Below are positions 10,429 to 51,515 of a stretch of 64,000 nucleotides of DNA, piece after piece. Positions within the stretch are counted from its first letter, which is position 1. Each line of letters opens with the position of its first letter. The notes beneath the pieces are model-generated. The model saw only the letters and a program-made list of their open reading frames with translations. It had not been told where the DNA came from and did not search any database. A program made the position numbers and the translations under genes. The DNA comes from Escherichia coli (GTDB lineage: Bacteria > Pseudomonadota > Gammaproteobacteria > Enterobacterales > Enterobacteriaceae): assembly GCF_022846255.1 (NCBI RefSeq), contig NZ_AP025682.1. One strand, written 5' to 3'.

Positions 10429-11730
10429 TTATTTTAATGGACTAATATCACTATTATTATCGCTATCTGTGATTTTTTCCCCATTCACGGAGATCATTCC
10501 CTGGATATATGAATCCCATAGATGTACGTCACCTTTATGAAAAATAATGCATGACATTGCGATTTTTTGTACTTTATATATCTGTTTATAGTATTCTTCT
10601 GAGTTTAATGGTGTATCTTTCAAGCTTTCATTCCTTGCTGGAAGAATCTTGACGGGACAGATAAAATCTGTATCCCCGAGTGAAAAGACATTAACTCCGG
10701 TTATAAAAAAGATACCCGGAATGTCTTGATGCAATCTCGTATTCCAGACTTGAGGATTAAACAGTTTATATGAATATTTATTTACATCTATATAATATTG
10801 ATGAGGACGCCAATCACTGATACCCGACATACTCATCGTCATATTGATAATTATATCAGGAATAGGTTTGAATAATACACTTAGAATGAACAATATGGCA
10901 GGAGGGAGTATTGCGATAGATAGCAAAGAGTTCAACCCTTCTTCTTGTTTTTCTTCTTGCTCATTTATCACTATCACACCTGGCAACATTCCTAAAAAGA
11001 TAAAAGCTAATGCAATGCAAGAAAATGATAGAAACTGTGATAAGATATCTGCACTCTCTTCAAGTCTGATCTTATTTGTCAAAAATAGCAGGGGGATAAT
11101 CTGAACAAGCCCGGGTAGAATTAAACATAAAGGAAGAGTGTATCTTATCCTGTTCCTGGGACGATATTGTTCGTGATTCTCGTGATTCTCGTGATTCTCG
11201 TGATTCTCGTGATTCTCGTGATTCTCAATGTTCTGTTCCCGAGGGGTATTTTTAGTGAATATTAATTTTTCTGAGAGGAAATATGAGACGAAATAATTAA
11301 ATAATACTATTAGTATTACTTCTGATATGGATGGATATAGAGTATTTTCTTCTGAAAAGGTAGACAGAACTGACTTTAGCACTAATGAAAAATAGAAAAC
11401 AACACTGTTCATATAGCAAATTATAGCAATTCTGTGCGCGATTCCTTTGTGATTTTTATAATAGTCTTTATGCCATGTATATGTATACACCAATACATGA
11501 GAAGATATAAAAATCAGTGAGGTTAGAGCCATTAGAGATAAAAGGATAAATATAAAGATAACACTTAAATAAAACTTTATGTCTATTGAGTCGAAAAACA
11601 AATCAAGTCTACCGAGTCCTTGCAGATAGAACCATATTGCAGATATGGCGCATCCTGTACTAAATACAGAAGACGTTAACATGGCGAGAAAAGCTTTATT
11701 ATTTAAATGTGAAAAGATAGATCTATTCAT
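10429..11730 (-). CDS. hypothetical multi-pass membrane protein with internal (ENH)6 repeat and ~130-aa C-terminal soluble domain
   Basis: ~433-aa ORF (ATG 11730; track start GTG 11739); ~7-8 hydrophobic helices; His-rich loop NIENHENHENHENHENHENHEQ encoded by a 9-bp tandem repeat; AT-rich codon usage. Confidence 0.55.
   Translation of the reverse strand: MNRSIFSHLNNKAFLAMLTSSVFSTGCAISAIWFYLQGLGRLDLFFDSIDIKFYLSVIFIFILLSLMALTSLIFISSHVLVYTYTWHKDYYKNHKGIAHRIAIICYMNSVVFYFSLVLKSVLSTFSEENTLYPSISEVILIVLFNYFVSYFLSEKLIFTKNTPREQNIENHENHENHENHENHENHEQYRPRNRIRYTLPLCLILPGLVQIIPLLFLTNKIRLEESADILSQFLSFSCIALAFIFLGMLPGVIVINEQEEKQEEGLNSLLSIAILPPAILFILSVLFKPIPDIIINMTMSMSGISDWRPHQYYIDVNKYSYKLFNPQVWNTRLHQDIPGIFFITGVNVFSLGDTDFICPVKILPARNESLKDTPLNSEEYYKQIYKVQKIAMSCIIFHKGDVHLWDSYIQGMISVNGEKITDSDNNSDISPLK
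11171..11226. repeat. 9-bp tandem repeat (TCGTGATTC)x6 inside the membrane-protein CDS
   Basis: Six perfect tandem copies seen directly; unit is 3 codons, so copy-number change is frame-preserving. Confidence 0.9.
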
Positions 11731-11945
11731 TATAAGCACATCATATTCTGTTGAGTATATGTCGATTTTATAATGTCATGTTCATGCAGATAATATCATA
11801 AGTAACATTAGTTGAACAAGAACAGAGTTGTAACAGATAAAGATCTCGTTGTTAGTTACATGATCTGATAAATGTTAGCATGAAATAGTAACTATATGAA
11901 GGATATAAGAACCTGTATCATAATGTCATATGCGTTATATCTGAT

Positions 11946-12707
11946 TCAGATATATTTTAATTTTGCTGATAGTTCTCGACATGCTTCAAGAACCAAAGTG
12001 GAATAATATTCTACTTTTTCTTTTGGCATTTGAATTTCCACACCACTAATGCTGATAGCAGCAATTGCTTCTCGAGCCTGATTAAACACCGGGGCGGCAA
12101 TGCAATAAATTCCTGGTGAATCTTCTGCGTTATCAAAAGCCCATCCTCGCTCACGAATACGTGCAAACTCTAGTATTAGATCAGATTTCCGAGTGATTGT
12201 CGTTTGCGTAAATCGAGGCAATGCCTCCTCAGGTAGTAAAGTGTCAATGACGTCTTGAGGTAACCATGCGCATAACGCTTTCCCCACCCCTGAGCTATGG
12301 AGTGGCAGCTTCTTACCTACCCACGTTCTGATACCAATTGGTTGAGTGCTTTCGAGTTTTAAGATATAGATTGGAGCGACTTCCTCAAGAATGCCTAAAT
12401 GGCAGATAAGATCAGTACTATCTCTCAGTTTTTCCAGCACCGGTCTCGCTACCTTACTTATGTCAAACTGTTCTAGCGAGCGATTTCCCCATTCATATAA
12501 TTTCAGTCCAAGGAAAAAACGCCCCCTTTCCTGACGTAACAAATGGTGTTCGACCAGAGCATTCAGTAAAGATGATGTGCTGCTTTTAGGCAGAGCCAGA
12601 TCTTGCTGGATTTGACTGAATGTGGCACCAGGAGAGTTGAAAAGATAATTGCAGATTCTGACTGTTTTATCGAGTGCTGGTACTGGTGTTCTTGTTTGAT
12701 TATTCAT
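11946..12707 (-). CDS. IclR-family transcriptional regulator
   Basis: 253-aa ORF; N-terminal HTH and C-terminal IclR effector domain pattern (GxxxLxxxDxxxxxxGWAxDxEExxxGxxCxAAPVF); divergent from the DapA-like operon. Confidence 0.85.
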   Translation of the reverse strand: MNNQTRTPVPALDKTVRICNYLFNSPGATFSQIQQDLALPKSSTSSLLNALVEHHLLRQERGRFFLGLKLYEWGNRSLEQFDISKVARPVLEKLRDSTDLICHLGILEEVAPIYILKLESTQPIGIRTWVGKKLPLHSSGVGKALCAWLPQDVIDTLLPEEALPRFTQTTITRKSDLILEFARIRERGWAFDNAEDSPGIYCIAAPVFNQAREAIAAISISGVEIQMPKEKVEYYSTLVLEACRELSAKLKYI

Positions 12708-13204
12708 AAAAAAATAACATATGATTTCTTACCAATGCTAAATAGTATACCCCAATCTTTATTAATGCATAGTGATGCTTAATCATTATGTTGCAGTTGA
12801 TCGACACAGGGGGACAAGAGTAGTTGTGTCACTGCCACATCACCCGGCATGCGATTTCACATCGGGATGTTCGAGAAGCATCAATGCTGCGCCCAAGATC
12901 CACCGAAAAGAAACGTGGGAATCACCGGCGGTGGGATTCATTGTCTATGCCCGTGTAGATTAGTGTGGATTTGCTGCACAGATGGTTCCGGTCTGAGAAA
13001 TGGGTAAATTCGTCGTTTACGACGGGAAGCTGCCTACACATGTTATACATCGTCTTCGTGTATCAACATGCTCCTATAAACTCGACTCAACTCACATTTT
13101 TCATTTCACATTGTAAAAACCTTTGACATGCAGAACCTTATTCTGATTCATTATATTCAACATGAAGAACTTTTGTTCCATATACAGAACTTAGTGAGAG
13201 CGAT

Positions 13205-14104
13205 ATGTTGACAGCGTTTAGAGGTATTTTTCCGCCGGTTCCTACTATTGTTGACGCACAGGGGAAACTGGATAAGACGGGTATGGCCCGAATGATTGAC
13301 CATGTAATAGAGAATGGTGCAAACGGAATGCTGATCCTAGGCAGTGGGGGCGAATTCTCACAATTTTCTTCCCAACAACGAAAAGAGATAGCAGCATTTT
13401 GTTTAAATCATGTAGATGGAAGAGTGCCTGTACTGGTGGGGGTTGCTTGTGCCGGGACAGCAGAAACTATTGAGCTGGGACGCCATGCTTATGAGCACGG
13501 AGCTGATGGTGTGCTGGTTGTTAATCCGTATTATGCAAAACTCAGCGATGATGCCCGGTTTATGCATTATAAATCTATTGCTGATACACTTGAAATCCCG
13601 GTGTTTCTCTATAACTTTCCTGATTTAACCGGCCAGGATATTGGACTTGAAGTCATTACCCGGCTGGCCCGGGAAGTTCCTAATATCGTGGGTATCAAAG
13701 ATACAATCGATAACATCAGTCATACCCGAGAAATTATCAACCGTGTACATTCATTTCGTCCGGATTTCATTATATTCAGTGGTTATGACGAATATATGCT
13801 GGACACTCTGTTACTGGGTGGTCATGGCGGTATTCCGGCAACATTCAATTTTGCTCCGGAAATCACACGGGGTATTTATCAGGCTGTTATGGAAAATGAT
13901 CTTGATAAGGCGCGTTATTTCCAACAACAACTGGCAAAATTGTCTCCGTTGTATGCGCTTGAGCAACCTTTCTTTGGGGTGATAAAGACCGCCATCAAAC
14001 TGAGTGGACTGGACATATCTACTGCAGTTATGGCACCGGCTCTTCCGCTCAGTGATGAGAAAATATCCAGAGTAAAATCCATTCTGGAACAAATTCATCA
14101 GTAA
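13205..14104 (+). CDS. DapA/NAL-family class I aldolase/dehydratase (2-keto-3-deoxy sugar acid type)
   Basis: 299-aa ORF; GSGGEFSQ and NFPDLTGQD...VGIKDT motifs; ~50% identical by eye to the YjhH-like ORF at 29909-30814. Confidence 0.85.
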   Translation: MLTAFRGIFPPVPTIVDAQGKLDKTGMARMIDHVIENGANGMLILGSGGEFSQFSSQQRKEIAAFCLNHVDGRVPVLVGVACAGTAETIELGRHAYEHGADGVLVVNPYYAKLSDDARFMHYKSIADTLEIPVFLYNFPDLTGQDIGLEVITRLAREVPNIVGIKDTIDNISHTREIINRVHSFRPDFIIFSGYDEYMLDTLLLGGHGGIPATFNFAPEITRGIYQAVMENDLDKARYFQQQLAKLSPLYALEQPFFGVIKTAIKLSGLDISTAVMAPALPLSDEKISRVKSILEQIHQ

Positions 14105-14120
14105 TCACGAGGGACGCAGG

Positions 14121-15638
14121 ATGAATAACTCTCAGGTACTCAAACTCAATAATCTGGATGATGTTGTGATTGCCATAACAGAGCTTCCTGCCGGAAGCTG
14201 GTTGAAGGCAGAAAATATCGAAACGCGTGACCTTATTCCGGCCGGACACAAAATTGCTCTTCGTGATATTCCTGCTGGTAGTGCGGTTAAGCGCTATGGA
14301 CAAATTATCGGCTTTGCCACTCGTGATATCCGCCAGGGGGAACATATTCATGTTCATAATCTCGGTATGGGAAATTTTGAACGTGATTATGCCTGGGGAA
14401 TAGACAGCCATCTTCCTGAGCGGGATGTCCATCAGGATACTTTTATGGGGATCAGAAGAAAAGACGGGCGAGTGGCAACCCGTAATTTTATCGGTGTGCT
14501 GAGTTCGGTGAACTGTAGCGCAACCGTGGTCAGAGCCATTGAGGATCATTTCCGTACCCGAGGCCTGAGCGATTACCCGAATGTTGATGGTATTGTCGCA
14601 TTGCCTCAGAGCTTCGGCTGCGCCTTTGGCTCTAATACTGAAATGATGAAAGTCATGCGGAGAACGATAGCAGGCTATGCCACTCACGTAAACTTTGCCG
14701 GGATTGTGATAGTGGGACTGGGATGTGAATCATTCCAGATTAAGGACATGATGAATGCCCATGGACTACATGAAAACCCGATGTTTCATACACTGACAAT
14801 TCAGGAAAGTGGCGGAACACGCAACGCTATCGAAAAGGGTATTTCGTTTATTCTTGATATGCTGCCGGAAGCCAACAATGTTAAACGTGAACCTGTTCCA
14901 GTGTCAGAAATTATCCTGGCCCTTGAGTGTGGTGGCTCAGACAGTTACTCAGGAATTTCTGCCAACCCGGCACTCGGTTATGCAGTTGATCGTCTGGTCC
15001 GTCAGGGAGGGACGGCCATTCTGTCCGAAACATCAGAAATCTACGGAGCTGAGCATCTTCTGACACGCCGTGCTATTAATCGTGAAGTGGGAGAAAAGCT
15101 AATCCGCAGGATTAAGTGGTGGGAGGAGTACTGTAAACGTACGGGTAGTGAAATGAATAACAATCCCTCCGCAGGTAATAAAGCGGGAGGGCTGACTACT
15201 GTTCTGGAGAAATCACTGGGTGGAATCGCTAAAGCCGGGACAACCAGCTTAATGGATGTGTATGAATATGCTGAACCTGTAACAGCAAAAGGGCTTGTCT
15301 TTATGGATACCCCCGGGTACGACCCGATGGCGGTAACTGGGCAAATTGCCGGAGGCGCTAATCTACTGTGTTTTACCACGGGTAGGGGATCTGCCTTTGG
15401 AGCAAAACCCACGCCTTGTCTGAAACTGGCGACCAATAATGCATTATGGCAACGACAGCGTGATGACATGGATTTAAACTGTGGCACGATCGTTGATGGT
15501 GAAGAAACGATTGAACAGGTAGGGGAACGTATTTATCAGAGAATTATTGAGCTGGCTTCAGGTAACCGTAGCCGAAGTGAAGAACTTGGGTATGGGAGTC
15601 TGGAATTTGTTCCTTGGATAATGAACTCAATAATGTAA
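14121..15638 (+). CDS. UxaA/GarD-family sugar-acid dehydratase (altronate/galactarate dehydratase-like)
   Basis: 505-aa ORF; SD GAGGGA; N-terminal SAF-like region and C-terminal dehydratase region typical of this family (recalled). Confidence 0.75.
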   Translation: MNNSQVLKLNNLDDVVIAITELPAGSWLKAENIETRDLIPAGHKIALRDIPAGSAVKRYGQIIGFATRDIRQGEHIHVHNLGMGNFERDYAWGIDSHLPERDVHQDTFMGIRRKDGRVATRNFIGVLSSVNCSATVVRAIEDHFRTRGLSDYPNVDGIVALPQSFGCAFGSNTEMMKVMRRTIAGYATHVNFAGIVIVGLGCESFQIKDMMNAHGLHENPMFHTLTIQESGGTRNAIEKGISFILDMLPEANNVKREPVPVSEIILALECGGSDSYSGISANPALGYAVDRLVRQGGTAILSETSEIYGAEHLLTRRAINREVGEKLIRRIKWWEEYCKRTGSEMNNNPSAGNKAGGLTTVLEKSLGGIAKAGTTSLMDVYEYAEPVTAKGLVFMDTPGYDPMAVTGQIAGGANLLCFTTGRGSAFGAKPTPCLKLATNNALWQRQRDDMDLNCGTIVDGEETIEQVGERIYQRIIELASGNRSRSEELGYGSLEFVPWIMNSIM

Positions 15639-15705
15639 TAACACAGGGCAGAGTTTATCCTGCCCTGTTGAAGTAAACACCGTTTTAGATAATTAGAGGT
15701 GAATA

Positions 15706-16713
15706 ATGGAACAGAAACCTGTGTTGGGAATTTTTTTAGGTGAAGCTGCCGGTATCGGACCAGAATTGATTGCTAAGGTTGTTGCTGATGGTACTGTCTA
15801 TAAATATTGCAGACCCGTTCTGATTGGTGATGCCCGTGTTCTTGCTCTTGGACAAAAGATTGCGGGTGTTCATTTTCAATGGGATGTAATAAGTGACCCA
15901 TCAGAGGCAGACTGGAGCACAGGAAATGTACCATTACTTGATTTAAAAAATTTCAACCCCGAAAAACTAACTATGGGGACCATTGATACCGATTCAGGTT
16001 ATGCAACCGGGGAATCATTGGTAACCTGTATGTCATTACTCAAATCAGGAAAGATTGATGGTTTTGTTTTTGCTCCATTGAATAAAGAGGCGTTCAAGAA
16101 AGGGGGCTGGGATATTGAAGACGAACATTATCTGTTTGCAGAGCAGTTAGGATGCCTGGATAGACCTCGCGGCCTGTTGAATGTCCTGGATGATCTCTGG
16201 GTTTTCCGTGTGACCGGACATATTCCGTTCAAAGATATTGCCAGCCATATTACTCCAGAAAATGTTAGCCGTTCGATTCAGTTATGCTATGACACACTAC
16301 GTATGGCAGCTATTGAAAATCCGCGAATTGCAGTTGCTGCACTTAATCCCCACGCCGGGGATGGTGGAACCTGCGGCACCGAAGAAATAGACGTGCTCAT
16401 TCCAGTAATTGAAAGTTTTCGAAAGAAAGGAATGGACATGTATGGGCCAGTTCCAGGTGACACCATTTTTATTCATGCGTTTAATCATGAATATGATGCG
16501 GTTGTTACCCTGTTCCATGACCAGGGACAAATTGCTACTAAACTGCATTCCTTTGACGTGGGAATAACTGTTGCCGCAGGACTTCCGTTCGCTATTACAA
16601 CACCAGAACATGGCACTGCATTTGATATTGCAGGTAAGGGGATCGCAAAAACAATGGCTACAGAGAGGGCTATTGCCGTGGCGGCCAGAATGGCTTCTAC
16701 AACACATAAATAA
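15706..16713 (+). CDS. PdxA-family NAD-dependent dehydrogenase (PdxA2-like)
   Basis: 335-aa ORF; SD AGAGGTG; PdxA-type pattern (AALNPHAGDGG..., HDQGQIA). Confidence 0.75.
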   Translation: MEQKPVLGIFLGEAAGIGPELIAKVVADGTVYKYCRPVLIGDARVLALGQKIAGVHFQWDVISDPSEADWSTGNVPLLDLKNFNPEKLTMGTIDTDSGYATGESLVTCMSLLKSGKIDGFVFAPLNKEAFKKGGWDIEDEHYLFAEQLGCLDRPRGLLNVLDDLWVFRVTGHIPFKDIASHITPENVSRSIQLCYDTLRMAAIENPRIAVAALNPHAGDGGTCGTEEIDVLIPVIESFRKKGMDMYGPVPGDTIFIHAFNHEYDAVVTLFHDQGQIATKLHSFDVGITVAAGLPFAITTPEHGTAFDIAGKGIAKTMATERAIAVAARMASTTHK

Positions 16714-16983
16714 AAATTCATAATAGCAGATAATATAATGTCTAATCTATACAGATAGATGTGAATATTATCTGCGTTATAATAAACTGTATAAGGCTAT
16801 TATAAATAACAGTCGGTGTTTTGATAAGTTGCTGGTTGTTATATCTTTAAAACGAGTTGATGATATTTATTTACTAGATATTCAGTGCGATTATAGCAGT
16901 ACTGTATCGCAAGAAAATAGCAGTGCTGGGGAAGTAGAAAGAATAAATTGCGATTTGCATGCTCATAGATAAGGATAGATCTC

Positions 16984-18342
16984 ATGTATTCAGAATCATT
17001 TGTGATGATAAGTGGGCTTGTTGCAATAGTTATACTTATCATCTTGATCACCCGATTTAAGCTTCATCCTTTTTTTTCATTGCTTATATCGTCTGTATTT
17101 TTGGGAATTGTGAACAATATTGGAGTGGCGAAAAGTGTAGATATATTTACGCACGGGTTTGGTAGTCAACTGTCTGTCACGGGGGTAGTTATCGGCTTAG
17201 GCGCAATGTTGGGGGGGCTATTGGTACAGTCTGGAGGAGGGGACAAAATAGCCGATATTATTATTGGGTCTAGAAAAATTGTTTGGATGCCTCTGTGTAT
17301 TGGTATAGTTTCGTTAATCATCGGTCTACCTAACTTGTTTGAAGTTACTTTTGTACTGATGGTACCCCTTGTGTTCTCTATTACCAAACGTTTGGGGTTA
17401 CCTGTTCTCAGAGTTGCACTCCCAATGTCTGCAGGATTAATGACAGCTCATGCGTTATTACCGCCTGGTCCGGCAACTATTATCGCTGCTACGGCTTATG
17501 GTGCCAGCATCGGAGAAACTACGCTTTATGGGGTGATTATTAGTATACCTGTTCTACTCTCAGGAGCTTATCTTTTCCCAAAAATAATGCACAAACATCT
17601 TAACGTGGGAGAACCTTTGGCACTGAATGAAACTGAACATAGACGGGGAAATAACGAACGTCAATTATATCGCCAACCATCGCTGACTGTCGCTTTGATA
17701 ACAGTTATGATCGCCCCTTGTCTGATGATTGTTGGGACTATTGGACTTGACTTTTTGCCAAAAACAGGTGTGGTCACAGAGGTATTCCAGGCACTAGGCA
17801 ATCCAGTAATAACTCTTGGACTTGCTCTGGTTTATGCCATGATATTTCTGGGACGGGGAGTGGGTTTTAGTAATGAAGAAATCCTGTCTATCAGTAAGAA
17901 AAGTATTGTGCCTATTGTTGGTTTGTTGCTAATTATCGGTGGAGGCGGTGGATTAAAAAACATACTAACAGCAATTGGTCTAAGTGATATTATCAGTAAC
18001 TTTGCTACGGATTGGTCTATTCCTCCGCTATTATTTGCATGGCTGGTGGCAGCTATTTTCCGCATTGCGCTTGGCTCTGGAACGGTGGCGGTCTCAGCTT
18101 CAGGAGGAATCGTTGCCGCGTTACTTACAGCACATCCAGAAACTAACGCAGCTCTATTGGTACTTTCAACTACGACTGGGGCAATGATTTTTTCACATGT
18201 CAGTGATGGGGCATTTTGGTTATTCAAAGAATACTTTGGACTTAGCGTACCACAAACTATTCGCACATGGAGTTATTTAGTCACGATACAGTCCATTGTC
18301 GGGCTTATAGGTGTATTGGTTCTAGGCGCTATTCTCAGTTAG
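16984..18342 (+). CDS. GntP-family (gluconate:H+ symporter family) permease
   Basis: 452-aa polytopic ORF with GntP-type motifs (LPPGPATIIAA...; IIGGGGGLK). Confidence 0.85.
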   Translation: MYSESFVMISGLVAIVILIILITRFKLHPFFSLLISSVFLGIVNNIGVAKSVDIFTHGFGSQLSVTGVVIGLGAMLGGLLVQSGGGDKIADIIIGSRKIVWMPLCIGIVSLIIGLPNLFEVTFVLMVPLVFSITKRLGLPVLRVALPMSAGLMTAHALLPPGPATIIAATAYGASIGETTLYGVIISIPVLLSGAYLFPKIMHKHLNVGEPLALNETEHRRGNNERQLYRQPSLTVALITVMIAPCLMIVGTIGLDFLPKTGVVTEVFQALGNPVITLGLALVYAMIFLGRGVGFSNEEILSISKKSIVPIVGLLLIIGGGGGLKNILTAIGLSDIISNFATDWSIPPLLFAWLVAAIFRIALGSGTVAVSASGGIVAALLTAHPETNAALLVLSTTTGAMIFSHVSDGAFWLFKEYFGLSVPQTIRTWSYLVTIQSIVGLIGVLVLGAILS

Positions 18343-18427
18343 TGGTTCTGTATTCAATATATAAGAAAGCAATATCAAGTTTTAACATCTTTAATTTAAT
18401 AGATATAGTATTAAAGGAGAGTAATTT

Positions 18428-19693
18428 ATGTCCTCCAATGAGAAAGCAACAAATATAAGATGGAGAATATTTTTTGTACTTTTTCTTCTTGTTGTTGTCA
18501 GTATGATTGATCGAGCCTCAATATCTATAGCTATGCCTACTATCGCTAAAGATTTGGGATTAAGCGATACGATGCAGGGATTAATACTAAGCGGTTTTTT
18601 CTGGACTTATGCTTGTATGCAAATACCCGGTGGGTTTCTGGCCGATAAATTTGGGGCAAGAATTGTACTGACATGTTCTGCCATTATTTGGGGAACTGCA
18701 GAAGCCTTATTAGGATTATGCCCAACAGGTTTCGCTTTACTTGCTGCTAATCTATTGCTTGGTGCAAGTGAAGCACCTGTGTTTCCCTCAGGCGCTAGAC
18801 TTAATGCAATTTGGTTAAATAAAAATGAAAGAGCTCGTGGAGCAACATTAATGGATGCCGGAGGTCCATTTGGGGCTGCAATTGGTGGAATATTAGTAGC
18901 TGAAATGATGCTTTATTTTGCATCGTGGCGGGTTACATTCATTATCTGTGGTGTTGCGGCTATCACTCTGGGGTTAATAGCTTACTGGATTATTCGCGAC
19001 AAACCTGAAGATTCACCAAATGTAAATGATAAAGAATTAAGTATTATTAATCTCGATCGTGTTGAGCAACATATAGTAGCAGAAAACAATGAGCCATTAT
19101 TAAAGGTTATTCCTCTACGTTCTTTTATTGGTATGCTTTTAGGTCGTTGTTCATGGGCAATGTGTTTCTTTGGTTTATTAACCTGGGGACCAGGATATCT
19201 TACACGAGCATTAAATCTGGATTTAAAAGCTGTTGGTTTTGCCACAATGATTATATTTTGCGCAGGTGGTTGTGGTAGTCTTTGTGGCGGATGGCTGGCA
19301 GATAAACTCGCAAGTAAAGGATTTGGGCGAGCTAGAACGTGTAAATTTCTATTAACTGTATCAGGTATCTGTACACTAATATCATTTGCTTTATTACCAA
19401 GCATACCAGATGTAAAAACATCAATTATTCTGCTGTCCTGCGCCGCGTTTGTTTTGATGTGGGGTAGTATGTACTGGACGTTTCCTCCTTTATTAGCTCC
19501 CCGTTCCCGTGTAGCTACTGTCGGGGGCATGATGAATATGGCTGGAAGTGTTGGAGGTATTTGCATTCCACTATTGGTAGGACTTATTTTGGATGTGACG
19601 AACTCATTCAATCCTGTACTCTACTTTTTTGCTGGTTGTGCTGTAATATTTATTTTAATGACTAATATTATCGATTTACGACACGTGCGATAG
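18428..19693 (+). CDS. MFS transporter (anion:cation symporter-type, sugar-acid transporter-like)
   Basis: 421-aa ORF; SD AAGGAGAG; 12-TM MFS pattern with MIDRASISIAMPTIAKDLGLS N-terminal signature. Confidence 0.85.
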   Translation: MSSNEKATNIRWRIFFVLFLLVVVSMIDRASISIAMPTIAKDLGLSDTMQGLILSGFFWTYACMQIPGGFLADKFGARIVLTCSAIIWGTAEALLGLCPTGFALLAANLLLGASEAPVFPSGARLNAIWLNKNERARGATLMDAGGPFGAAIGGILVAEMMLYFASWRVTFIICGVAAITLGLIAYWIIRDKPEDSPNVNDKELSIINLDRVEQHIVAENNEPLLKVIPLRSFIGMLLGRCSWAMCFFGLLTWGPGYLTRALNLDLKAVGFATMIIFCAGGCGSLCGGWLADKLASKGFGRARTCKFLLTVSGICTLISFALLPSIPDVKTSIILLSCAAFVLMWGSMYWTFPPLLAPRSRVATVGGMMNMAGSVGGICIPLLVGLILDVTNSFNPVLYFFAGCAVIFILMTNIIDLRHVR

Positions 19694-19702
19694 GAGATAA
19701 AC

Positions 19703-20653
19703 ATGAACATCAAGCCACTAAATTTATATGATGGCCCTGTAATTGATGCGCATCATCACTTCTGGGATCCGATAGAAAATGATCATCCTTGGCTAAAGCC
19801 GGATGTTTTAATTCCTTTTAGATATGGTGATTATACGGCGATTAAGAAAAAATATTATCCTGAAGATTATTTTGCAGATGTAGGTGATATTAATGTCGTT
19901 GAAACCTGTTATATGGAGACTGAATGGAATCCAGCGGATCCATGTGGTGAAAGCGATTTCATTACATCAGTAGCAAAAATGACAGGTTATCCAAATGCTG
20001 TTGTCGGACAGGCTTGGTTAAATCATGATGATATAGATTCTGTGTTGAAGATGCAGAGTTCATATGAGTTGATGCGAAGCATCAGGCATAAGCCAGAGGG
20101 GCCTGATAAACCAGAGGATGTTGGATCGTATACAACTCTGATGAGTGATGAAAGATGGCGATATGGGTATTCATTACTTTCAAAATACAATCTAATGTTT
20201 GATCTGCAAACCCAGTGGTGGAATTTGCATGAAGCTGTAAAACTGGCAAATGATTTCCCAGACACAGTAATAATCCTTAATCATACAGGGCTCCCTGCAC
20301 AACGTTCTGTTGAAGGGTTGGCCGGGTGGCATTCAGCAATGGCTTCTTTGGCTGAATGTGAAAATGTGATGGTTAAAATATCGGGTATAGGTTTAAAAGG
20401 GATTCCATGGACAGTGGAGAATAATCTATGGATAATATCTGAAACGTTATCAATGTTTGGTCCTGACAGGGTCATGTTTGCAAGTAATTTCCCCGTGGAC
20501 AGTCTTTGTGGCAGTTTCAGTGATATATTTCATGGCTTTATGACTGTTTGCGAGATGAAAGGGTATTCACATGCGGCTCAGCGGAAAATGTTTCATGACA
20601 ATTGTAAGAGAATCTATCGAACAATCCCACCAAGTGAATTGAAGGAAGTATAG
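19703..20653 (+). CDS. Amidohydrolase_2-family metal-dependent hydrolase (lactonase/decarboxylase type)
   Basis: 316-aa ORF; SD AGGAG; N-terminal DAHHHFWDP metal-binding motif typical of this family. Confidence 0.7.
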   Translation: MNIKPLNLYDGPVIDAHHHFWDPIENDHPWLKPDVLIPFRYGDYTAIKKKYYPEDYFADVGDINVVETCYMETEWNPADPCGESDFITSVAKMTGYPNAVVGQAWLNHDDIDSVLKMQSSYELMRSIRHKPEGPDKPEDVGSYTTLMSDERWRYGYSLLSKYNLMFDLQTQWWNLHEAVKLANDFPDTVIILNHTGLPAQRSVEGLAGWHSAMASLAECENVMVKISGIGLKGIPWTVENNLWIISETLSMFGPDRVMFASNFPVDSLCGSFSDIFHGFMTVCEMKGYSHAAQRKMFHDNCKRIYRTIPPSELKEV

Positions 20654-20805
20654 CTGATAATCATATTTAATGATATCTGAGGTTTATTATTGTATAACTC
20701 ATGGAAATTCATGATTCGTAAATGTGAGTTATATCTATATGCTGTTGAATAGTGATACGCAAGAAGCACATAAAAATATAACATAATAATACTCCGTAAA
20801 CATTT

Positions 20806-20834
20806 CCCCCTTTTAAAAGAGGGGGAGTTTTTAT
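20806..20834 (+). terminator. rho-independent terminator after the acid-sugar operon
   Basis: GC stem CCCCCTTTT/AAAAGAGGGGG followed by AGTTTTTATT. Confidence 0.6.
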
Positions 20835-20972
20835 TGTCATTGCTATACCATAGCTTGGAGAGGATTATTGGAATGGTAGAAGAGTCATTATGAGATAATA
20901 TTATTATCTGAGCTGGCCCCCTGAAATACCAGACAGTAGATGTATCTTAAAATAAGAGATAGGCTTGGATAT

Positions 20973-21368
20973 ATGTCTAACACTAGTTCTAATTTTGAGA
21001 TGGCTGGCGTTTTGTTAGGAAAAGAGGTGCGTAAACGTAAAACACCTCAGGAAAAAATCGCAATTATTCAACAGACTATGGAGCCGGGCATGATGGTGTC
21101 CCACGTGGCGCGTTTGCATGGAATTCAGCCCAGTCTGTTGTTTAAGTGGAAGAAACAATACCAGGAAGGAAGCCTCACTGCTGTGGCTGCCGGTGAAGAC
21201 GTTGTTCCTGCTTCTGAACTGACCGCTGCAATAAAGCAGATTAATCAGCTTCAGCGTTTACTGGGTAAGAAAACCATGGAAGTTGAGATCCTCAAAGAAG
21301 CGGTGGAGTATGCACAATCGCGAAAATGGATAGCGCATGTGCCCTTGTTACCTTCGGACAAGGAATAG
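20973..21368 (+). CDS. IS2-group transposase OrfA
   Basis: HTH OrfA homolog of IS2 InsC ([24 protein letters not shown]...). Confidence 0.75.
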
Positions 21369-22207
21369 CCCCGGTAAGCCGTGTTCTGGGCGTGTCACGT
21401 GCGCAGTTAACATTACGGATGAAGGCATCTGATAACAAGCCAGATAAACGGCGCCAGAGGCGCGATGAGGCTGCGGATGCAGAAGTCTTATCGCGCATCC
21501 TGGATATCATTGGCGATATGCCAGCATACGGGTATCGCCGTGTCTGGGCGATACTCAGGCGGCAGTCCCGAAATGAAGGACTACCGTTCGTGAATGCAAA
21601 GCGTGTTTACCGGATAATGAGCGAAAATAGTCTGTTGTTGTTACATGACAAACCATCACGACGGCAGCGGGAACATAAAGGCCGAATATCGGTGAAGGAA
21701 AGCGACCAGCGTTGGTGTTCCGATGGCTTTGAGTTCGGTTGCGATGATGGCGAAAAACTGCGTGTTACGTTCGTCCTGGACTGTTGCGATCGTGAAGCCA
21801 TAGACTGGGTCGCAAGCACGGGAGGTTACGATAAAGCGACAGTGCAGGATGTGATGTTAGGAGCGATAGAAAAACGCTTTGGCGATAAAGTACCGGAACA
21901 GTCCATCCAGTGGCTGACAGATAACGGTTCAGCGTACAGAGCGCATGAAACACGGCAGTTCGCCAGAGAGCTGAATCTGAAGCCCTGCACAACAGCAATC
22001 AGTAGCCCTCAGAGTAATGGAATGGCAGAACGGTTCGTGAAAACGATGAAGGAAGACTACATCGCGTTCATGCCGAAACCGAATGTAAGAACGGCATTGC
22101 ATAACCTTGCAGTGGCGATCGAGCATTACAATGAAAACCATCCGCATAGTGCGTTGGGTTATCGCTCTCCGCGAGAATATCGACGTCAGCGGGTAATGTT
22201 AACTTAA
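21326..22207 (+). CDS. IS2-group transposase OrfB (DDE catalytic)
   Basis: 293-aa ORF homologous to IS2 InsD; overlaps orfA in the -1 frame. Confidence 0.75.
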
Positions 22208-22311: not shown

Positions 22312-23397
22312 ATGTCCATTCTTCGTCCGAACGAAAATCTTGCAGCAGCTCTCAGCGATGATTCAGAGTTCAGCAATAGCATGCAGTTCAGGTTAATCCT
22401 GGCAAAGACTGTTGATGCAGGAGCCCCGGTTCCAGCGGATCTGGCTCTGACGTGGGTGACAAACCATATTGAATACTCATTACGAACCCCCGCCCGCCGC
22501 TGTGCGAAAGAATTTGCTGCACTATTTAAACGGCGTTACACCCTTAAATACGGTGAAGGGATGGTAGTGAAGCCGAATAAAGCGCGTCTGCGTTTAGATT
22601 ACACGCCTGCAAGTCCCAGTTTGAGAGGTATTCGGCTTCCTGTTCCTGACTTGCCTGATCCAAGTGCATTGAAAGGCCCTGTTCAGAAGCTTATGACTCT
22701 TGCTGATATATGCACAGATGAACTGGATGCTTACAGTCGTTACCTTGGTAGAAAAGGCACTTCAGCAAATGATACCGCTGCAATTTTGTTGCTGCCTTCA
22801 GAAATCGTTAACGAAAGCGCAGATAAATTATTAAGTGCATTCAAACGCTGGGCTGATGACGCGATCCTCAGTAAGGGGGGAGTAGTTTCAGTTGCTGACT
22901 TCTGGTCACACATGAATGCTACCTGTCCGGCAAAGATCAACAAAAAAGAGGCCGACTTGATGCAGGCCTTTGCACAGAAAATGGGGTACTGCCTGGCTCC
23001 TGACCCCTATTACCACCACGTAAAAGCAAATGTCGATGGTGTTCTTGTTTTATTCCCTGCTGGTGAAAGTGGCCGCTTCTCTCCTTCTCCTGAATTTATC
23101 ACAGCTGTATTGACGCTCCGATTAGGTTCGGTAGTCGCCTTGATTGACAATTCTTTCGATCAAGCCGAACAGAAAGTGCTTGAGAATGCCATCAACAACA
23201 ATGTCAGCTTCAGCGATGATGAAAAGCGCTCTCTGCACGCATATTTAACGTGGCAGCTTCATACCCCGGCGAATATGACGGGAATGAAAAGCCGGATTGA
23301 ATTACTCGGTGCAGCGGAAAAATCAGCTGTGGGTAAGGTTATCGTTAGTGTCGCTTGCTCTGACGGCAGAATTACGCCTGCCGAAATCAAACTGTAG
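22312..23397 (+). pseudogene. TerB-domain protein gene remnant, 3'-truncated by the IS911-like element
   Basis: 361-aa ORF; C-terminal TerB-like repeats (VALIDNSFDQAEQKVL; VSVACSDGRITPAEI); TAG stop 23395-23397 overlaps the IS left end; frame stays open upstream into the preceding IS, so the 5' end may also be lost. Confidence 0.5.
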
Positions 23398-23464
23398 TGG
23401 CACACTGAATTTGGCCACCTGAACAGAGGTGATATGCTCACCTCAGAACAACACAGGTGCTCCA

Positions 23465-24633
<1,169 letters not shown>

Positions 24634-25758: not shown

Positions 25759-26949
25759 TTATATAGCTGGTGACTCTTTTCGAAGAGCATCAAGGTAGTC
25801 AGCGTACCATTGCATCATTTCTCGTCTTCCTTCAAGGTAACGAGCATGGTTGTATGTACCACGAATGCTGTTTTTGTCCGTATGTGCAAGTTGCATTTCA
25901 ATCCATGCACTATTGAATCCTTGCTCGTGTAGAACAGTACTCATTGTATGACGAAATCCATGCCCGGTAGCTTTTTTGTCATAGCCAATCTTCTTCAAAA
26001 CCATATTGACGCTTGCATCGCTGATAGGCCTGTTAACATCATTTCTTCCGGCAAAGATGTATCTGTATCTTCCAGTCAGTTCTTTGAGGATTTGCAGAGA
26101 CTGGATTGCCTGATCTGACAGAGGGACGATATGCTCCTTCCTCATTTTCATCCGGGTCGGAGGAACTTCCCATATCTTTTGGGTAAAATCGATCTCACAC
26201 CATTCCCCCATACGTAATTCTACTGTTCTCAGCCCTGTGAGCATCAACAATTTTGTAGCTTCACGGGTTACAATACTGCCGGTGTAGTTTTCGAGTTTGT
26301 ATAAAAACTCTGGTAGTTCAGGAGGAAGCAGGAAAGGGTAATGTGTTCGCTTATAGCTTTTCATTGCTATAACCAGATCAGAAGCTGGATTGTATCGTGC
26401 CCGACCTGTAACAATGGCATACCGAAACACTTCACCACATCGTTGGCGAACTTTATTAGCTAGCTCGCAGGCTCCTCGGCTTTCGATACGCTGAAGAACT
26501 GCGAGAAGTTCAAGAGGTTCGATTTCACTAATGGGTCTGTTTCCAATGTAGGGAAACACATTATTTTTGAATGCTCTGTCGACATAATCAGCGTAGCTGG
26601 CAGACCAGCCTGAAACTTTTGCGTTGTACCACTCGGTGGCGATTGCGGCAAAAGTTCTTCCTTCGGAAAGGTTTTTCTCAAGATTTTCAGCTTTCTTGAC
26701 TTCACCGGGATCTTTACCATCGGCATGTATTTTCTTGGCTTCATCCCGACGTTTGCGAGCTTCAGCCAATGTAATAGTTGGATAGGTGCCAAATGATAGT
26801 TTCTTTTCCTTCCCCGCATAGTGGTACTTCATTCGCCAGTACTTTGAGCCGTTAGGATTGACCTGAAGGTAGAGCCCACCACCATCGGCAATCTTATAAA
26901 TTTTATCTTTGGGTTTGGCTGTTTCAACTTGTCGAGCTGTCAGTGGCAT
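25759..26949 (-). CDS. int: P4-type tyrosine integrase (internal copy)
   Basis: ORF 25759-26976; likely start ATG 26949 (MPLTARQVETAKPKDK...) with SD GAGG; P4-family N-terminal pattern and C-terminal catalytic R...HxxR...Y region. Confidence 0.85.
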   Translation of the reverse strand: MPLTARQVETAKPKDKIYKIADGGGLYLQVNPNGSKYWRMKYHYAGKEKKLSFGTYPTITLAEARKRRDEAKKIHADGKDPGEVKKAENLEKNLSEGRTFAAIATEWYNAKVSGWSASYADYVDRAFKNNVFPYIGNRPISEIEPLELLAVLQRIESRGACELANKVRQRCGEVFRYAIVTGRARYNPASDLVIAMKSYKRTHYPFLLPPELPEFLYKLENYTGSIVTREATKLLMLTGLRTVELRMGEWCEIDFTQKIWEVPPTRMKMRKEHIVPLSDQAIQSLQILKELTGRYRYIFAGRNDVNRPISDASVNMVLKKIGYDKKATGHGFRHTMSTVLHEQGFNSAWIEMQLAHTDKNSIRGTYNHARYLEGRREMMQWYADYLDALRKESPAI

Positions 26950-27076
26950 CTGGGGGCCTCGCAATAGATTGACCAAGATGTGCCCCTAAATAGGCCCCCA
27001 AATGTGACTTGATTTACGTTCCCCTGAGGAGAATTAAGGCGACTATTTGAGTAACATAAGTAAGGGTATGTGCTGA

Positions 27077-27640
27077 TTATAAAGGCTTTTTGTGGGGTAT
27101 GGTAGATTTCAGGAGAGGTGTGCATGGTGTCCCCTGCAGAATGATGTAAACACCTGCTGCGAAGGTAATAGATTGCATGATGGAGAACATGAACCAGTTT
27201 TTACCACCACTAAGCTCTTTCACCACATCTGCACGCGCAAACAGGCACGTCACCAGGAAAATTATGCTCATGGTAAAAGAGATAGCAACCGGCGTGTCGC
27301 GCAAGAACAGCAGACTTTTCGGCACATTCATGTCTTCAGTCGAGTGGTCTTTATTACCAAACTTGCTGCCGATGAAACCGGCCAATACATAATATAATGT
27401 TGAGAAGTGGCCGATGGCAACGTCATCAGAACCGGTCACTTTCTTCATGTACGGATGCGCAATAGCCGGGAAAAAGACCATTGCCACGCCAACAACCAAA
27501 GAGCCAACGGCTATAAGCGTAATGCCGGTCATGCCTGCTGTTGCCAGAATTACCGCTACCATCATCGACATAAACAACGTGTGATGACCGGTCAGGAAGA
27601 TAAATTTCCACGGTGTGAAACGGGCAATCAGAATGTTGAT
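27077..27640 (-). pseudogene. PTS EIIC internal fragment (ascorbate/galactitol-superfamily permease; possibly sgc-derived)
   Basis: Membrane ORF fragment resembling the UlaA/SgaT-type EIIC core; no native N- or C-terminus; abuts the rpe-like fragment in opposite orientation. Confidence 0.5.
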
Positions 27641-27642
27641 AA

Positions 27643-28014
27643 CCATCAGAACCGCTGGACTATCCCTCGGAAACGTTAGCTGAGATCCGCCATACCGGCG
27701 CACGAGCCGGGCTGGCATTTAATCCGGCGACCCCAATCGACGCCTGGCAATATCTAGCGTCTGAGCTGGACGGCGTGATGGTGATGACCTGTGAGCCCGA
27801 TGGGCACGGACAGCGGTTTATTCCCTCTATGTGCGAGAAAATCCAAAAAGTACGCACGGCTTTTCCTCAGACCGAGTGCTGGGCCGACGGTGGAATTACG
27901 CTGGCGGCAGCACAGCAACTGGCTGCAGCCGGGGGGCAGCATATGGTGATTGGGCGCGTCTTGTTCTTTTCATCTGACTATCGCGCGACCTTAGCTCAAT
28001 TCGCCACCCTGTAA
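27643..28014 (+). pseudogene. ribulose-phosphate 3-epimerase-like (sgcE-type) 3' fragment
   Basis: In-frame translation ...AGLAFNPATP...PDGHGQRFIPSMCEKIQKVR...ADGGITLAAAQQLAAAGG... matches the C-terminal ~120 aa of Rpe-family proteins; N-terminal two-thirds absent. Confidence 0.7.
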
Positions 28015-28030
28015 GAGGAGATTGTTTCTG

Positions 28031-28813
28031 ATGAGCCAACAGAGACCTGACCGTATCAAACAGATGCTGCACTACCTGTGGCAACATCGTCACCTCTCCA
28101 CACAGCAGGCCATGGAGCTTTTTGGCTATGCGGAGGCGACTGTCCGTCGTGATTTTCAGTATATTGCCAACCAGTACCCAGGAATGATCCGCGGTCACGG
28201 TTGTCTCGACTTCGACGACAGTACTGACGACAAAGAGTACGTTTTCGATGTGAAACGTACATTGCAATCTGTGGCGAAGAGAGAAATAGCCGCCCTTGCC
28301 CGAACGATGATCAAAGATGGCGACTGCTTTTTTCTCGACTCCGGCTCAACCTGCCTCGAACTGGCGAAATGCCTGGCCGATGCACGGGTGAAGGTCTCCT
28401 GCAACGACATTAAAATCGCCAATGAGCTGGGCTGTTTTCCCCATGTGGAAAGCTATATTATCGGTGGACTGATTCGCCCGGGTTATTTTTCGGTAGGAGA
28501 GAGTCTGGCGCTGGAGATGATCAATGCCTTTTCCGTAGAACGTGCGTTTATCTCCTGCGATGCGCTGTCGCTGGAGACGGGGATCACCAATGCCACCATG
28601 TTTGAGGTCCGGGTGAAAACACGGATTATTCAACGCTCGCGTGAAGTTATTCTCATGGCCGAACACTCAAAATTTGATGCCGTTGAGCCGCATGCTGTAG
28701 CAACACTCTCATGTATTAAAACGATCATTAGTGACAGCGGGTTACCTGAGACTATTGCACAGCGTTATCAGCGAGCCGGATGTCAGTTGTTTTTACCTCA
28801 TTCAATAAAGTGA
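28031..28813 (+). CDS. sgcR: DeoR-family transcriptional regulator SgcR-like
   Basis: ORF with SD AAGAGGAG 10 nt upstream of ATG 28031; DeoR-type HTH and sugar-phosphate-binding C-terminal domain; resembles K-12 SgcR as recalled. Confidence 0.8.
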   Translation: MSQQRPDRIKQMLHYLWQHRHLSTQQAMELFGYAEATVRRDFQYIANQYPGMIRGHGCLDFDDSTDDKEYVFDVKRTLQSVAKREIAALARTMIKDGDCFFLDSGSTCLELAKCLADARVKVSCNDIKIANELGCFPHVESYIIGGLIRPGYFSVGESLALEMINAFSVERAFISCDALSLETGITNATMFEVRVKTRIIQRSREVILMAEHSKFDAVEPHAVATLSCIKTIISDSGLPETIAQRYQRAGCQLFLPHSIK

Positions 28814-29904: not shown

Positions 29905-29908
29905 GGTA

Positions 29909-30814: not shown

Positions 30815-30824
30815 GGAGAGGATC

Positions 30825-32792: not shown

Positions 32793-32898
32793 AAGCAAAA
32801 ATAAAAATATCCAGACGCCTGAATTATCCGGTTACGCATTATTCATCCTGTGCGCAGCCGGATAATGACGGCTCGTTACCCTATAATGAGAGGACGTT

Positions 32899-36626: not shown

Positions 36627-36729
36627 AAATAACTCCTTGTGGTAGTTATAATCAATCGTTGTGGACAGAGGGCATAACAGCCATTCCTCGAATGGCTGTT
36701 ATATGTTATTAATTAAAATAAAGCTGTAA

Positions 36730-37371: not shown

Positions 37372-37401
37372 TACTGCTCCTTAACAGAAGTGATCGTCGT
37401 T

Positions 37402-38517: not shown

Positions 38518-38526
38518 AATGACCTC

Positions 38527-42097: not shown

Positions 42098-42172
42098 TTT
42101 TGGTAGGTAAGAATATGCGGGAAGGGAGTGATGTCACTGCCCGCATATAGGTGGCACCCTCATGCCACCTTT

Positions 42173-42205
42173 GAAGAGGCAATTTTATTGCCTCTTCTCA
42201 ATTTA
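42173..42205 (+). terminator. putative rho-independent terminator after porin
   Basis: 10-bp stem GAAGAGGCAA / TTGCCTCTTC, 5-nt loop, T-rich tail. Confidence 0.45.

Positions 42206-50285: not shown

Positions 50286-51515
<1,230 letters not shown>

Follow-up and report, generated by a model that had tools for sequence, protein, structure and literature searches.

At positions 11,946-20,834 of the stretch of Escherichia coli DNA analysed here (64,000 nt of contig NZ_AP025682.1, assembly GCF_022846255.1; hereafter the window), the gene of an IclR-family regulator lies divergent from six genes encoding a DapA-like aldolase, a UxaA/GarD-like dehydratase, a PdxA-like enzyme, a GntP-family permease, a major facilitator superfamily (MFS) transporter and an amidohydrolase_2 protein (Table 1). 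The gene content was read from the list of open reading frames (ORFs) of the window, and families were assigned by comparison with NCBIfam, with Pfam (window proteins and orthologues of 84-95 % identity) and with the sequences of PDB entries. In a preliminary description of this DNA, made from its letters alone, the same seven ORFs had been placed in these families; all of them lie at the coordinates given there, every family call is correct, and both the divergent iclR and the closing terminator are present. The seven genes, including the regulator, form a real, horizontally mobile operon on an E. coli genomic island.

Table 1. Genes and non-coding features of the locus, in window coordinates
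Feature	Position	Strand	Basis or remark
IclR-family transcriptional regulator	11946-12707	-	divergent from operon
Promoter/operator block 5' of the first operon gene (putative)	13123-13190	+	read from sequence
DHDPS/NAL-family class I aldolase, YagE/YjhH type (DapA-like)	13205-14104	+	ORF list, PDB, residues
UxaA/GarD-superfamily acid-sugar dehydratase	14121-15638	+	ORF list, domains, identity comparisons
PdxA-family enzyme	15706-16713	+	PF04166
AT-rich 270-nt spacer between enzyme and transporter genes	16714-16983	+	junction of gntP presence/absence
GntP-family permease	16984-18342	+	TIGR00791
MFS transporter	18428-19693	+	TIGR00893 best match, below cut-off
Amidohydrolase_2	19703-20653	+	PF04909
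Intrinsic terminator closing the operon	20804-20834	+	pattern scan

The operon had been described as tightly packed, with a canonical Shine-Dalgarno sequence for every gene. The intergenic gaps, in operon order, are 16, 67, 270, 85 and 9 nt; close packing thus holds for dapA-uxaA-pdxA and for the MFS-amidohydrolase pair, but not at the 270-nt spacer and the 85-nt gap. Shine-Dalgarno sequences, ranging from GAGAG to AAGGAG, are recognisable for the six operon genes, whereas none is obvious at the iclR start. The terminator consists of a hairpin (20804-20827) with a 10-bp stem (5 GC pairs) and a 4-nt loop, followed by a TTTTTATT tail. The spacer is poorly conserved, and a pattern scan of its + strand revealed nothing resembling a terminator; a single weak promoter-like match was found in this region, at 16696-16724. 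Rfam returned no match for either the spacer or the whole locus.

With 497 nt, the iclR-dapA intergenic region exceeds that of all other versions by approximately 253 nt. The extra length is caused by an insertion at about 12765-13017 that is found in no other version and is probably the right-end relic of an IS200/IS605-type element; it has no Rfam match and no near-identical copy among complete E. coli genomes. Between 12880 and 13004 the insertion shows about 70 % identity to a pseudogene fragment of 126 nt annotated as "RNA-guided endonuclease TnpB family" on E. coli IncI-type plasmids. The promoter/operator block downstream of the insertion comprises a TTGACA hexamer (13123-13128), the palindrome CAGAAccttaTTCTG (13131-13145) and GAAC/GTTC half-sites (13167-13190). 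This block is kept in E. coli, Citrobacter and Hafnia, whereas the remaining intergenic DNA diverges, and it may serve as the operator of the IclR protein. The regulator matches the BhcR, KdgR and IclR models of NCBIfam, each below its equivalog cut-off; its orthologues have the HTH_IclR and IclR_C domains, and it stands beside the operon in all enterobacterial versions.

Enzymes and transporters of the operon

The PdxA-like protein matches PF04166 with E=3e-86 (3.1e-86) and scores below the cut-off of all eight NCBIfam PdxA/PdxA2 models (205 against 583 for the PdxA2 equivalog). By aligning 119 members of its clade with PdxA, two PdxA2 structures and 4jqp (P0001-P0120, L032), the active-site residues may be compared. 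The metal-binding histidines H166, H211 and H266 (elsewhere listed as H172, H216 and H271) are invariant in the 119 clade members, as are D247, D267 and K274. In all 119, the GHTE stretch (135-138) is changed to D-E-H/L-x, N283 to T, and R292 to I or V, whereas PdxA, the two PdxA2 structures and 4jqp all retain GHTE/N/RTS. In the window protein GHTE reads DEHY, with H136 replaced by E, T137 by H, N283 by T and R292 by I, and K274 is retained. The substrate-binding residues of E. coli PdxA, namely H136, T137, K274, N283 and R292, are therefore replaced in the clade at four positions of five. Judging from the alignment, the loss of arginine 292 fits a non-phosphorylated substrate and the absence of a kinase. 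The preliminary description had remarked that no kinase of any kind, including the DUF1537 type that normally partners PdxA2, is present; this is borne out, as no kinase gene was found in the window locus or in the orthologous loci examined, and the PdxA-like protein itself is not of PdxA2 type by its residues.

A PdxA or PdxA2/DUF1537-type identity was rejected on the grounds of the sub-cut-off scores, the four replaced residues and the missing adjacent kinase. The PdxA2/DUF1537 pathways for D-threonate and D-erythronate have in common with the window the Pfam family, the metal ligands and the catalytic Asp/Lys. Similarly, the "pdxA-like cluster" of strain BEN2908 was discarded as a precedent; it lies on a different island and is of the DUF1537/PdxA2 type. 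The signature E136/T283/I or V292 (E. coli PdxA numbering) separates many "PdxA" proteins encoded beside acid transporters from true PdxA/PdxA2, and nearly all proteins that bear it are named 4-hydroxythreonine-4-phosphate dehydrogenase in the databases. By analogy with a Pseudomonas region described below, the window enzyme is predicted to be an NAD+-dependent decarboxylase of 2-carboxy-L-threo-pentonate. A comparable pairing is that of the D-apiose pathways reportedly described by Carter and colleagues in 2018, in which an amidohydrolase-type lactonase (ApnL) and a PdxA-family oxidoisomerase (ApnO) act on a non-phosphorylated branched acid sugar; those clusters continue with OiaK/OiaC/OiaT-type enzymes, whereas the window continues with a UxaA dehydratase and an aldolase.

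The aldolase matches YagE in the PDB with E=2.7e-87, is 46 % identical to a YjhH-like protein encoded at 29855-30814 of the window, and possesses the Schiff-base Lys165, Tyr136 and the GSGGE motif. A true DapA identity was rejected, since the score against TIGR00674 (DapA) is 184.3 bits with a cut-off of 206.15 and since Leu141 occupies the position of the DapA-specific Arg138 of the E. coli enzyme. These features suggest that the enzyme would cleave a 2-keto-3-deoxy-pentonate into pyruvate and glycolaldehyde.

The dehydratase has the architecture SAF + GD_AH_second + GD_AH_C (PF08666, PF04295 and PF20629, seen on the 100 % identical representative of its 90 % cluster and on orthologues). Its identities to GarD and UxaA of E. 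coli K-12 are 37 and 32 %, for which reason neither assignment was accepted, and it reaches 401.6 bits against the GarD equivalog TIGR03248 (cut-off 730.85). It probably belongs to the subfamily of the D-arabinonate/D-idonate dehydratases C785_RS13685 of Herbaspirillum and Pden_4928 of Paracoccus, which share four cysteines with it, and a (2S,3R) substrate is expected; the identity to C785_RS13685 is about 61 %, an approximate figure obtained from an optically read sequence corrected by hand. The cysteines are C132, C167, C202 and C270, in the motifs VNCSA, FGCA, GLGCE and LECGG, and the residues C134, C173, C208 and C276 of C785_RS13685 have been proposed as iron ligands. Homologues at 63-64 % identity are labelled "arabinonate dehydratase" by JGI, and the E. 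coli orthologue is labelled D-arabinonate dehydratase in one RefSeq record. According to the published work, UxaA-family D-arabinonate dehydratases use (2S,3R) acids, and the same subfamily contains a D-idonate dehydratase with a (2S,3R,4S) substrate, which shares 67 % of its residues with the arabinonate enzyme, so that substrates differ at this level of identity. C785_RS13685 and Pden_4928 feed Weimberg/Route III or 2-keto-3-deoxygalactonate (KDGal)-kinase routes, and the gene context in the window differs from theirs. By analogy, the window enzyme is predicted to be an L-xylonate (2S,3R,4S) dehydratase.

The GntP-family permease scores 353 bits against TIGR00791 (cut-off 292.75) and falls below all specific equivalogs; it is predicted to be an acid-sugar:H+ symporter importing a free acid (carboxypentonate or pentonate). 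The best match of the MFS transporter is the anion:cation symporter model TIGR00893 (237.7 against a cut-off of 395), and it is 30 % identical to GarP and 24 % identical to ExuT. It probably belongs to the D-galactonate/GarP-like group and is predicted to import a mono-anionic lactone. The amidohydrolase_2 protein (PF04909, E=4.6e-37) carries the HxH metal motif in DAHHHFWD at residues 15-22. It reaches 77.5 bits against the L-fucono-1,5-lactonase model NF052480 (cut-off 400) and matches PDB 4dlf over a partial stretch only (E=2e-8); in the NCBIfam and PDB comparisons it is distant from every characterised lactonase. Many Pseudomonas homologues are 58-61 % identical to it. From its family and metal motif it is predicted to be a lactonase.

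Modular distribution and the Pseudomonas counterpart

Comparative loci were collected via the PdxA-like protein, and a scan of contigs gave 12 loci. A profile check of each protein and a genome-neighbourhood comparison had been proposed in the preliminary description; the former confirms the families, and the latter reveals synteny of the gene set across E. coli, Salmonella enterica diarizonae, Citrobacter spp., Hafnia alvei and Desulfovibrio metagenome-assembled genomes. This synteny across genera shows that the gene combination is more than chance. The seven-gene version occurs in Citrobacter braakii. A six-gene version with the MFS and amidohydrolase genes, but without gntP, is the common one in E. 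coli and is also found in S. enterica diarizonae and C. werkmanii, whereas GntP is the sole transporter in the five-gene version of Hafnia alvei and C. youngae/portucalensis. In the Desulfovibrio genomes and in metagenomic contig L008, genes for DapA, MFS, amidohydrolase_2, a split UxaA and PdxA are interleaved with a single transporter, and Superficieibacter has PdxA and GntP alone.

The six-gene allele is present in 451 of 5426 complete E. coli genomes (~8 %), at a DNA identity of 86.7 % and protein identities of 93-96 %; the seven-gene allele of the window occurs in none of the 5426 complete RefSeq genomes. The six-gene allele likewise lies in an island rich in insertion sequences (IS), and O25b:H4-ST131 records are among its cluster members. 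Across these versions, the YagE/YjhH-like aldolase, the UxaA-family dehydratase and the PdxA-family enzyme form an invariant core, and GntP on one side and MFS plus amidohydrolase_2 on the other are interchangeable uptake modules. Between E. coli and Desulfovibrio, the MFS, amidohydrolase_2 and PdxA-like proteins are 70, 81 and 73 % identical, compared with 50 and 37 % for the aldolase and dehydratase. This suggests that the triad MFS-amidohydrolase_2-PdxA-like is a conserved unit to which aldolase and dehydratase were recruited separately.

Sister clusters, in which IclR, aldolase and dehydratase are 53-80 % identical to those of the window, have no PdxA-like gene and carry an MFS of their own (35-36 % identical to the window MFS). 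Their partner genes are DgoK/DgoA in Salmonella and a metagenome, and a GldA-type glycerol/glycolaldehyde dehydrogenase in Serratia; C. youngae carries the PdxA-like gene plus a GldA-type gene. Because the sister clusters manage without the PdxA-like gene and C. youngae has both, the PdxA-like enzyme probably acts before the dehydratase and not on the aldolase product. The Salmonella enterica and metagenomic sister island (L028, 7081-13450; L030, 6086-12446) consists of genes for IclR, a DHDPS-type aldolase, a UxaA-type dehydratase 75-77 % identical to that of the window, an MFS, DgoK and DgoA, and so holds a free-acid aldolase as well as a kinase/2-keto-3-deoxy-6-phosphogalactonate-aldolase pair. 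It is apparently uncharacterised, and a D-idonate-type route to KDGal is predicted for it.

The triad recurs in Pseudomonas fulva, where genes for MFS, amidohydrolase_2 and PdxA-like proteins overlap by 4-8 nt, the latter two being translationally coupled, and their products are 49, 60 and 40 % identical to those of the window. The P. fulva PdxA-like protein (PA2212-type) shares the pocket signature of the clade (E136, T283, I292-T-T) with the metal ligands retained. LysR and TctCBA genes flank the triad on one side; on the other lie a TRAP system, a beta-propeller gene, another amidohydrolase_2, an MFS and, eight genes downstream, an MR_MLE (enolase-superfamily) gene seen as a 113-aa fragment only. 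In a published comparison, the "metabolic" region PA2206-PA2217 of P. aeruginosa comprises a tripartite tricarboxylate transporter, PA2212, PA2213, PA2214 (MFS)-PA2215, an FAH gene and an aldehyde dehydrogenase gene, and its P. fulva version has an inserted TRAP system. Since its layout matches that description, the P. fulva triad locus is the counterpart of PA2206-PA2217. The title of a further paper identifies PA2214-17 as an L-lyxonate pathway region.

In the window locus and its orthologues, as in the decarboxylase context described next, the PdxA-family gene stands alongside an amidohydrolase and a transporter, with a pentonate-type dehydratase in the locus. PA2206-PA2217 and its equivalent in Cupriavidus necator H16 are said, in work by Stack and colleagues from 2020, to catabolise L-ascorbate. 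Reportedly, ascorbate is oxidised and the lactone hydrolysed to 2,3-diketo-L-gulonate, which an enzymatic benzilic-acid rearrangement is said to convert into 2-carboxy-L-lyxonolactone. An amidohydrolase-superfamily lactonase reportedly opens this lactone, a PdxA-family enzyme with catalytic NAD+ is said to decarboxylate the acid to L-lyxonate, and LyxD and its partners would then carry L-lyxonate to 2-oxoglutarate. PA2215 is a pentonate dehydratase. Three unrelated dehydratase families share loci with the PdxA clade, namely MR_MLE in P. fulva, the UxaA type in enteric bacteria and Desulfovibrio, and the YjhG/YagF type, upstream, in Megasphaera paucivorans; the UxaA-type and YjhG/YagF-type companions are pentonate dehydratases.

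A candidate route for ascorbate decay products and its alternatives

Based on the results presented above, the locus may be read as an IclR-controlled, kinase-free operon for the catabolism of 2-carboxy-L-threo-pentonate and its two lactones, 2-carboxy-L-xylonolactone and 2-carboxy-L-lyxonolactone, a reading to which we give about an even chance. According to the plant literature, these branched acids arise non-enzymatically from diketogulonate as two epimeric lactones with a single negative charge and one open-chain acid with two; these compounds interconvert, are otherwise relatively stable and slowly yield L-lyxonate and L-xylonate. The substrates would thus be stable branched C6 acids formed spontaneously from dehydroascorbate or 2,3-diketo-L-gulonate. 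The anion-type MFS would bring in the mono-anionic lactone, which the amidohydrolase_2 protein would open, and GntP would bring in the open-chain acid. Once the open acid is available, the PdxA-family enzyme would remove one of its two C2 carboxyls through a beta-decarboxylation that relies on transient oxidation of C3 by NAD+, yielding a pentonate, predicted to be L-xylonate (2S,3R,4S). Subsequently, the UxaA-family dehydratase would convert L-xylonate into 2-keto-3-deoxy-L-pentonate, and finally the YagE/YjhH-like aldolase would split the latter into pyruvate and glycolaldehyde, of which host enzymes would dispose. The GldA-type "glycolaldehyde reductase"-like neighbour in Citrobacter and Serratia fits a glycolaldehyde product.

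Under this scheme, the coexistence of a GntP module with a module of anion-type MFS and lactonase would be accounted for, because the lactones carry one charge and the free acid two, both being relatively stable; GntP-only and MFS-plus-lactonase-only versions would follow from the uptake of the open acid by one and of the lactone by the other. The preliminary description had suggested two related substrates or a substrate/product pair from the two transporters, and the existence of GntP-only, MFS-plus-lactonase-only and combined loci agrees with the former if the two are read as two forms of one substrate. As C2 of the open acid is not a stereocentre, the decarboxylase would fix the stereochemistry of the product. 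L-xylonate is predicted because UxaA-type enzymes need a (2S,3R) substrate and because DgoK/DgoA accompany the most similar of the sister dehydratases (77 %), an association that implies a D-idonate-type (2S,3R,4S) substrate leading to KDGal. Given an L-xylonate product, the 40 % identity between the enteric and Pseudomonas PdxA-like proteins would reflect differing stereochemical outcomes.

The locus resembles the L-ascorbate pathway reported from C. necator H16 and P. aeruginosa in having neighbouring genes for a transporter, an amidohydrolase lactonase and a kinase-independent PdxA-family enzyme, after which a pentonate dehydratase follows. The window locus lacks the genes for ascorbate oxidation, dehydroascorbate hydrolysis and benzilic-acid rearrangement, and it has IclR instead of LysR, an additional GntP, and a predicted L-xylonate in place of L-lyxonate. 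The back halves also differ: enolase-type LyxD, a second dehydratase and an aldehyde dehydrogenase lead there in a Weimberg-like manner to 2-oxoglutarate, whereas the UxaA-type dehydratase and class I aldolase of the window would lead in a Dahms-like manner to pyruvate and glycolaldehyde. The yjhIHGF and yagEF clusters for D-xylonate (Dahms) have IclR, a YjhH/YagE-type aldolase, a pentonate dehydratase and GntP in common with the window; however, the window dehydratase is of the UxaA and not the IlvD/YjhG type, and the PdxA-like, MFS and lactonase genes are extra. The Campylobacter jejuni cj0480c-cj0490 locus for L-fucose/D-arabinose is likewise polycistronic, with a divergent IclR, a DapA-like and a UxaA-type protein, an MFS, a dehydrogenase and an amidohydrolase. 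It has a short-chain-type sugar 1-dehydrogenase, the FucP sugar permease, a mutarotase and an aldehyde dehydrogenase of its own, whereas the oxidoreductase of the window is of the PdxA family and both its transporters are acid transporters.

Several points weigh against the proposed scheme. The window PdxA-like protein is only 40 % identical to its P. fulva homologue, so that a different substrate is quite possible. More distant clade members adjoin cyclase-type or amidohydrolase_1 hydrolases or TctABC, and because of these differing neighbours the clade is probably not monofunctional. The characterised pathway reportedly gives L-lyxonate (2R,3R), contrary to the (2S,3R) rule of the UxaA type, and the switch to L-xylonate is a prediction only. 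With no gene for ascorbate oxidation, a dehydroascorbate lactonase or a rearrangement enzyme in the locus, the model depends on spontaneous substrate formation. In addition, the identity of the dehydratase to C785_RS13685 depends on the hand-corrected text.

One alternative is a non-phosphorylative (Dahms or "Route I") pathway for a straight-chain aldonate and its lactone, of the D-arabinonate/L-galactonate/L-fuconate/D-idonate series. The role of the PdxA-like enzyme in it would be that of an NAD(P)-dependent 3-keto-reductase or a redox-epimerase at C3/C2, supplying the dehydratase with its (2S,3R) substrate from an imported acid (e.g. L-gulonate, D-ribonate, D-talonate or the 3-keto acid of an ascorbate-type lactone). 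The roughly 60 % identity of the dehydratase to D-arabinonate dehydratase, in a family using (2S,3R) acids, agrees with this, as do the YagE/YjhH-like aldolase, the parallel with the C. jejuni layout, the weak match of the amidohydrolase to L-fucono-1,5-lactonase, and the sister clusters, which place the PdxA-like step before the dehydratase. However, the PdxA family is not known to include an epimerase or a simple keto-reductase; aldonolactones are neutral, which leaves the pairing of an anion-type MFS with a lactonase unexplained; and the homology of the triad to PA2210-12-type Pseudomonas genes goes unused. We therefore consider this pathway unlikely. A 1-dehydrogenase acting on aldoses or uronates (including Kdo to D-arabinose, or oxidative uronate use) was also set aside as a role of the PdxA-like enzyme, since it would be chemically unprecedented and conflicts with the link of the triad to acid transporters.

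A GarD-GarL-GarR-like route has also been considered, in which an anionic aldaro-lactone is imported and hydrolysed, the GarD-like enzyme dehydrates the aldarate, the aldolase yields pyruvate and tartronate semialdehyde, and the PdxA-like enzyme reduces the semialdehyde to glycerate or replaces a uronate dehydrogenase upstream. GarD is the best NCBIfam and PDB match of the dehydratase, the MFS is GarP/DgoT-like, aldaric monolactones are anionic, the layout of dehydratase, aldolase, oxidoreductase and transporter mirrors the gar genes, and the loss of R292 and N283 could indicate that a smaller molecule, for instance glycerate or tartronate semialdehyde, is bound. On the other hand, the dehydratase is 37 % identical to GarD against about 61-64 % to arabinonate dehydratases, and in Superficieibacter and Pseudomonas a PdxA-like gene and transporter occur without any dehydratase. 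A downstream aldehyde or tartronate-semialdehyde reductase was, moreover, down-weighted because C. youngae has a GldA-type gene besides the PdxA-like one and sister clusters process the aldolase product without the latter. An aldarate route thus appears very unlikely. The operon might instead join two independent modules, the PdxA-like beta-decarboxylating dehydrogenase making a ketose or keto compound and the dehydratase/aldolase pair serving another acid sugar. The modules do occur apart, as PdxA+GntP in Superficieibacter, as PdxA+MFS+hydrolase in Megasphaera and other Firmicutes, and as an IclR-DapA-UxaA-MFS cassette in Serratia and Salmonella, and the 270-nt spacer parts enzymes from transporters. 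Yet the five interleaved genes with a single transporter in Desulfovibrio and L008 imply one substrate and one pathway, and dehydratases of three unrelated families accompany the PdxA-like gene in different loci, which makes two separate modules quite unlikely.

With regard to novelty, literature searches by gene combination and RefSeq names found no paper on the operon, in keeping with the earlier statement that no characterised pathway has this exact combination; that statement was nevertheless too strong, as the Pseudomonas PA2206-PA2217 region contains a counterpart of the triad. The substrate had been called unknown, which also overstates the case, since its class is narrowed by that triad, by the similarity of the dehydratase to D-arabinonate dehydratase and by the YagE/YjhH-like aldolase. 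The operon would therefore be an uncharacterised variant of known pathways, combining a shortened ascorbate-product front half with a Dahms-type back half, and not a wholly new system.

Island setting and biological meaning

As a whole, the window represents a composite genomic island of pheV/pheU type. The window protein sequences are identical to E. coli records (BDH31971-76 and others), and the remainder of the window is E. coli island DNA at 99.8 %. A tRNA-Phe gene (61022-61097) and an adjoining P4-type integrase gene, together spanning 59562-61097, lie at the window end, and a second P4-type integrase is found mid-window (25759-26976). Directly past the operon terminator are two IS3-family elements with two-ORF transposases (20940-22207 and 23429-24633), and the 361-aa ORF between them (22312-23397) has no NCBIfam match. 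Just upstream of iclR, a 436-aa multi-pass membrane ORF with a (NHE)7 repeat and a GC content of about 32 % is encoded on the minus strand (10429-11739); it too has no NCBIfam match. At 27077-27718, on the minus strand, a 213-aa fragment matches only residues ~100-275 of the IIC component of the ascorbate family of phosphotransferase systems (UlaA/SgaT-type), which indicates a truncated gene, and a gene for a DeoR-family regulator (28022-28813) adjoins it. A second acid-sugar cluster, of yjhIHGF type (29116-34248), encodes IclR, a YjhH-like aldolase, a YjhG/YagF-family pentonate dehydratase (1203 bits) and GntP, so that two Dahms-style pentonate modules with non-homologous dehydratases reside on one island. 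Among the genes of the region 36000-50300, which is 99.8 % identical in other E. coli strains, are those of an OmpC-like porin, an NhaC antiporter and S-methyl-5-thioribose kinase (mtnK); mtnK is not known from E. coli K-12.

In the databases the operon proteins are named "PdxA", "altronate dehydratase", "dihydrodipicolinate synthase" and even "thioesterase". The E136/T283/I292 signature offers a means of parting phosphate-independent PdxA-family enzymes from PdxA/PdxA2 and thus of correcting annotation. The proposed scheme also provides a testable substrate prediction for five uncharacterised proteins and makes the operon a target for enzyme-function discovery, with no conceptual surprise.

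In its widest form, the scheme would describe a mobile, oxygen-independent and kinase-free scavenging of the "dead-end" decay products of vitamin C, with a PdxA-subfamily decarboxylase that is stereo-inverted relative to the known one and with an undescribed UxaA-type L-xylonate dehydratase and 2-keto-3-deoxy-L-pentonate aldolase; we hold this tentatively, at somewhat less than an even chance. With the same reserve, the carriers of such scavenging could be E. coli, including ST131-type lineages, Hafnia, Citrobacter, Salmonella and Desulfovibrio. If the scheme is true, the ascorbate pathway would extend to anaerobes in a shortened, aldolase-based form, and an accessory island present in about 8 % of complete E. 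coli genomes and in several other gut genera would be assigned a niche in the use of vitamin C decay products.

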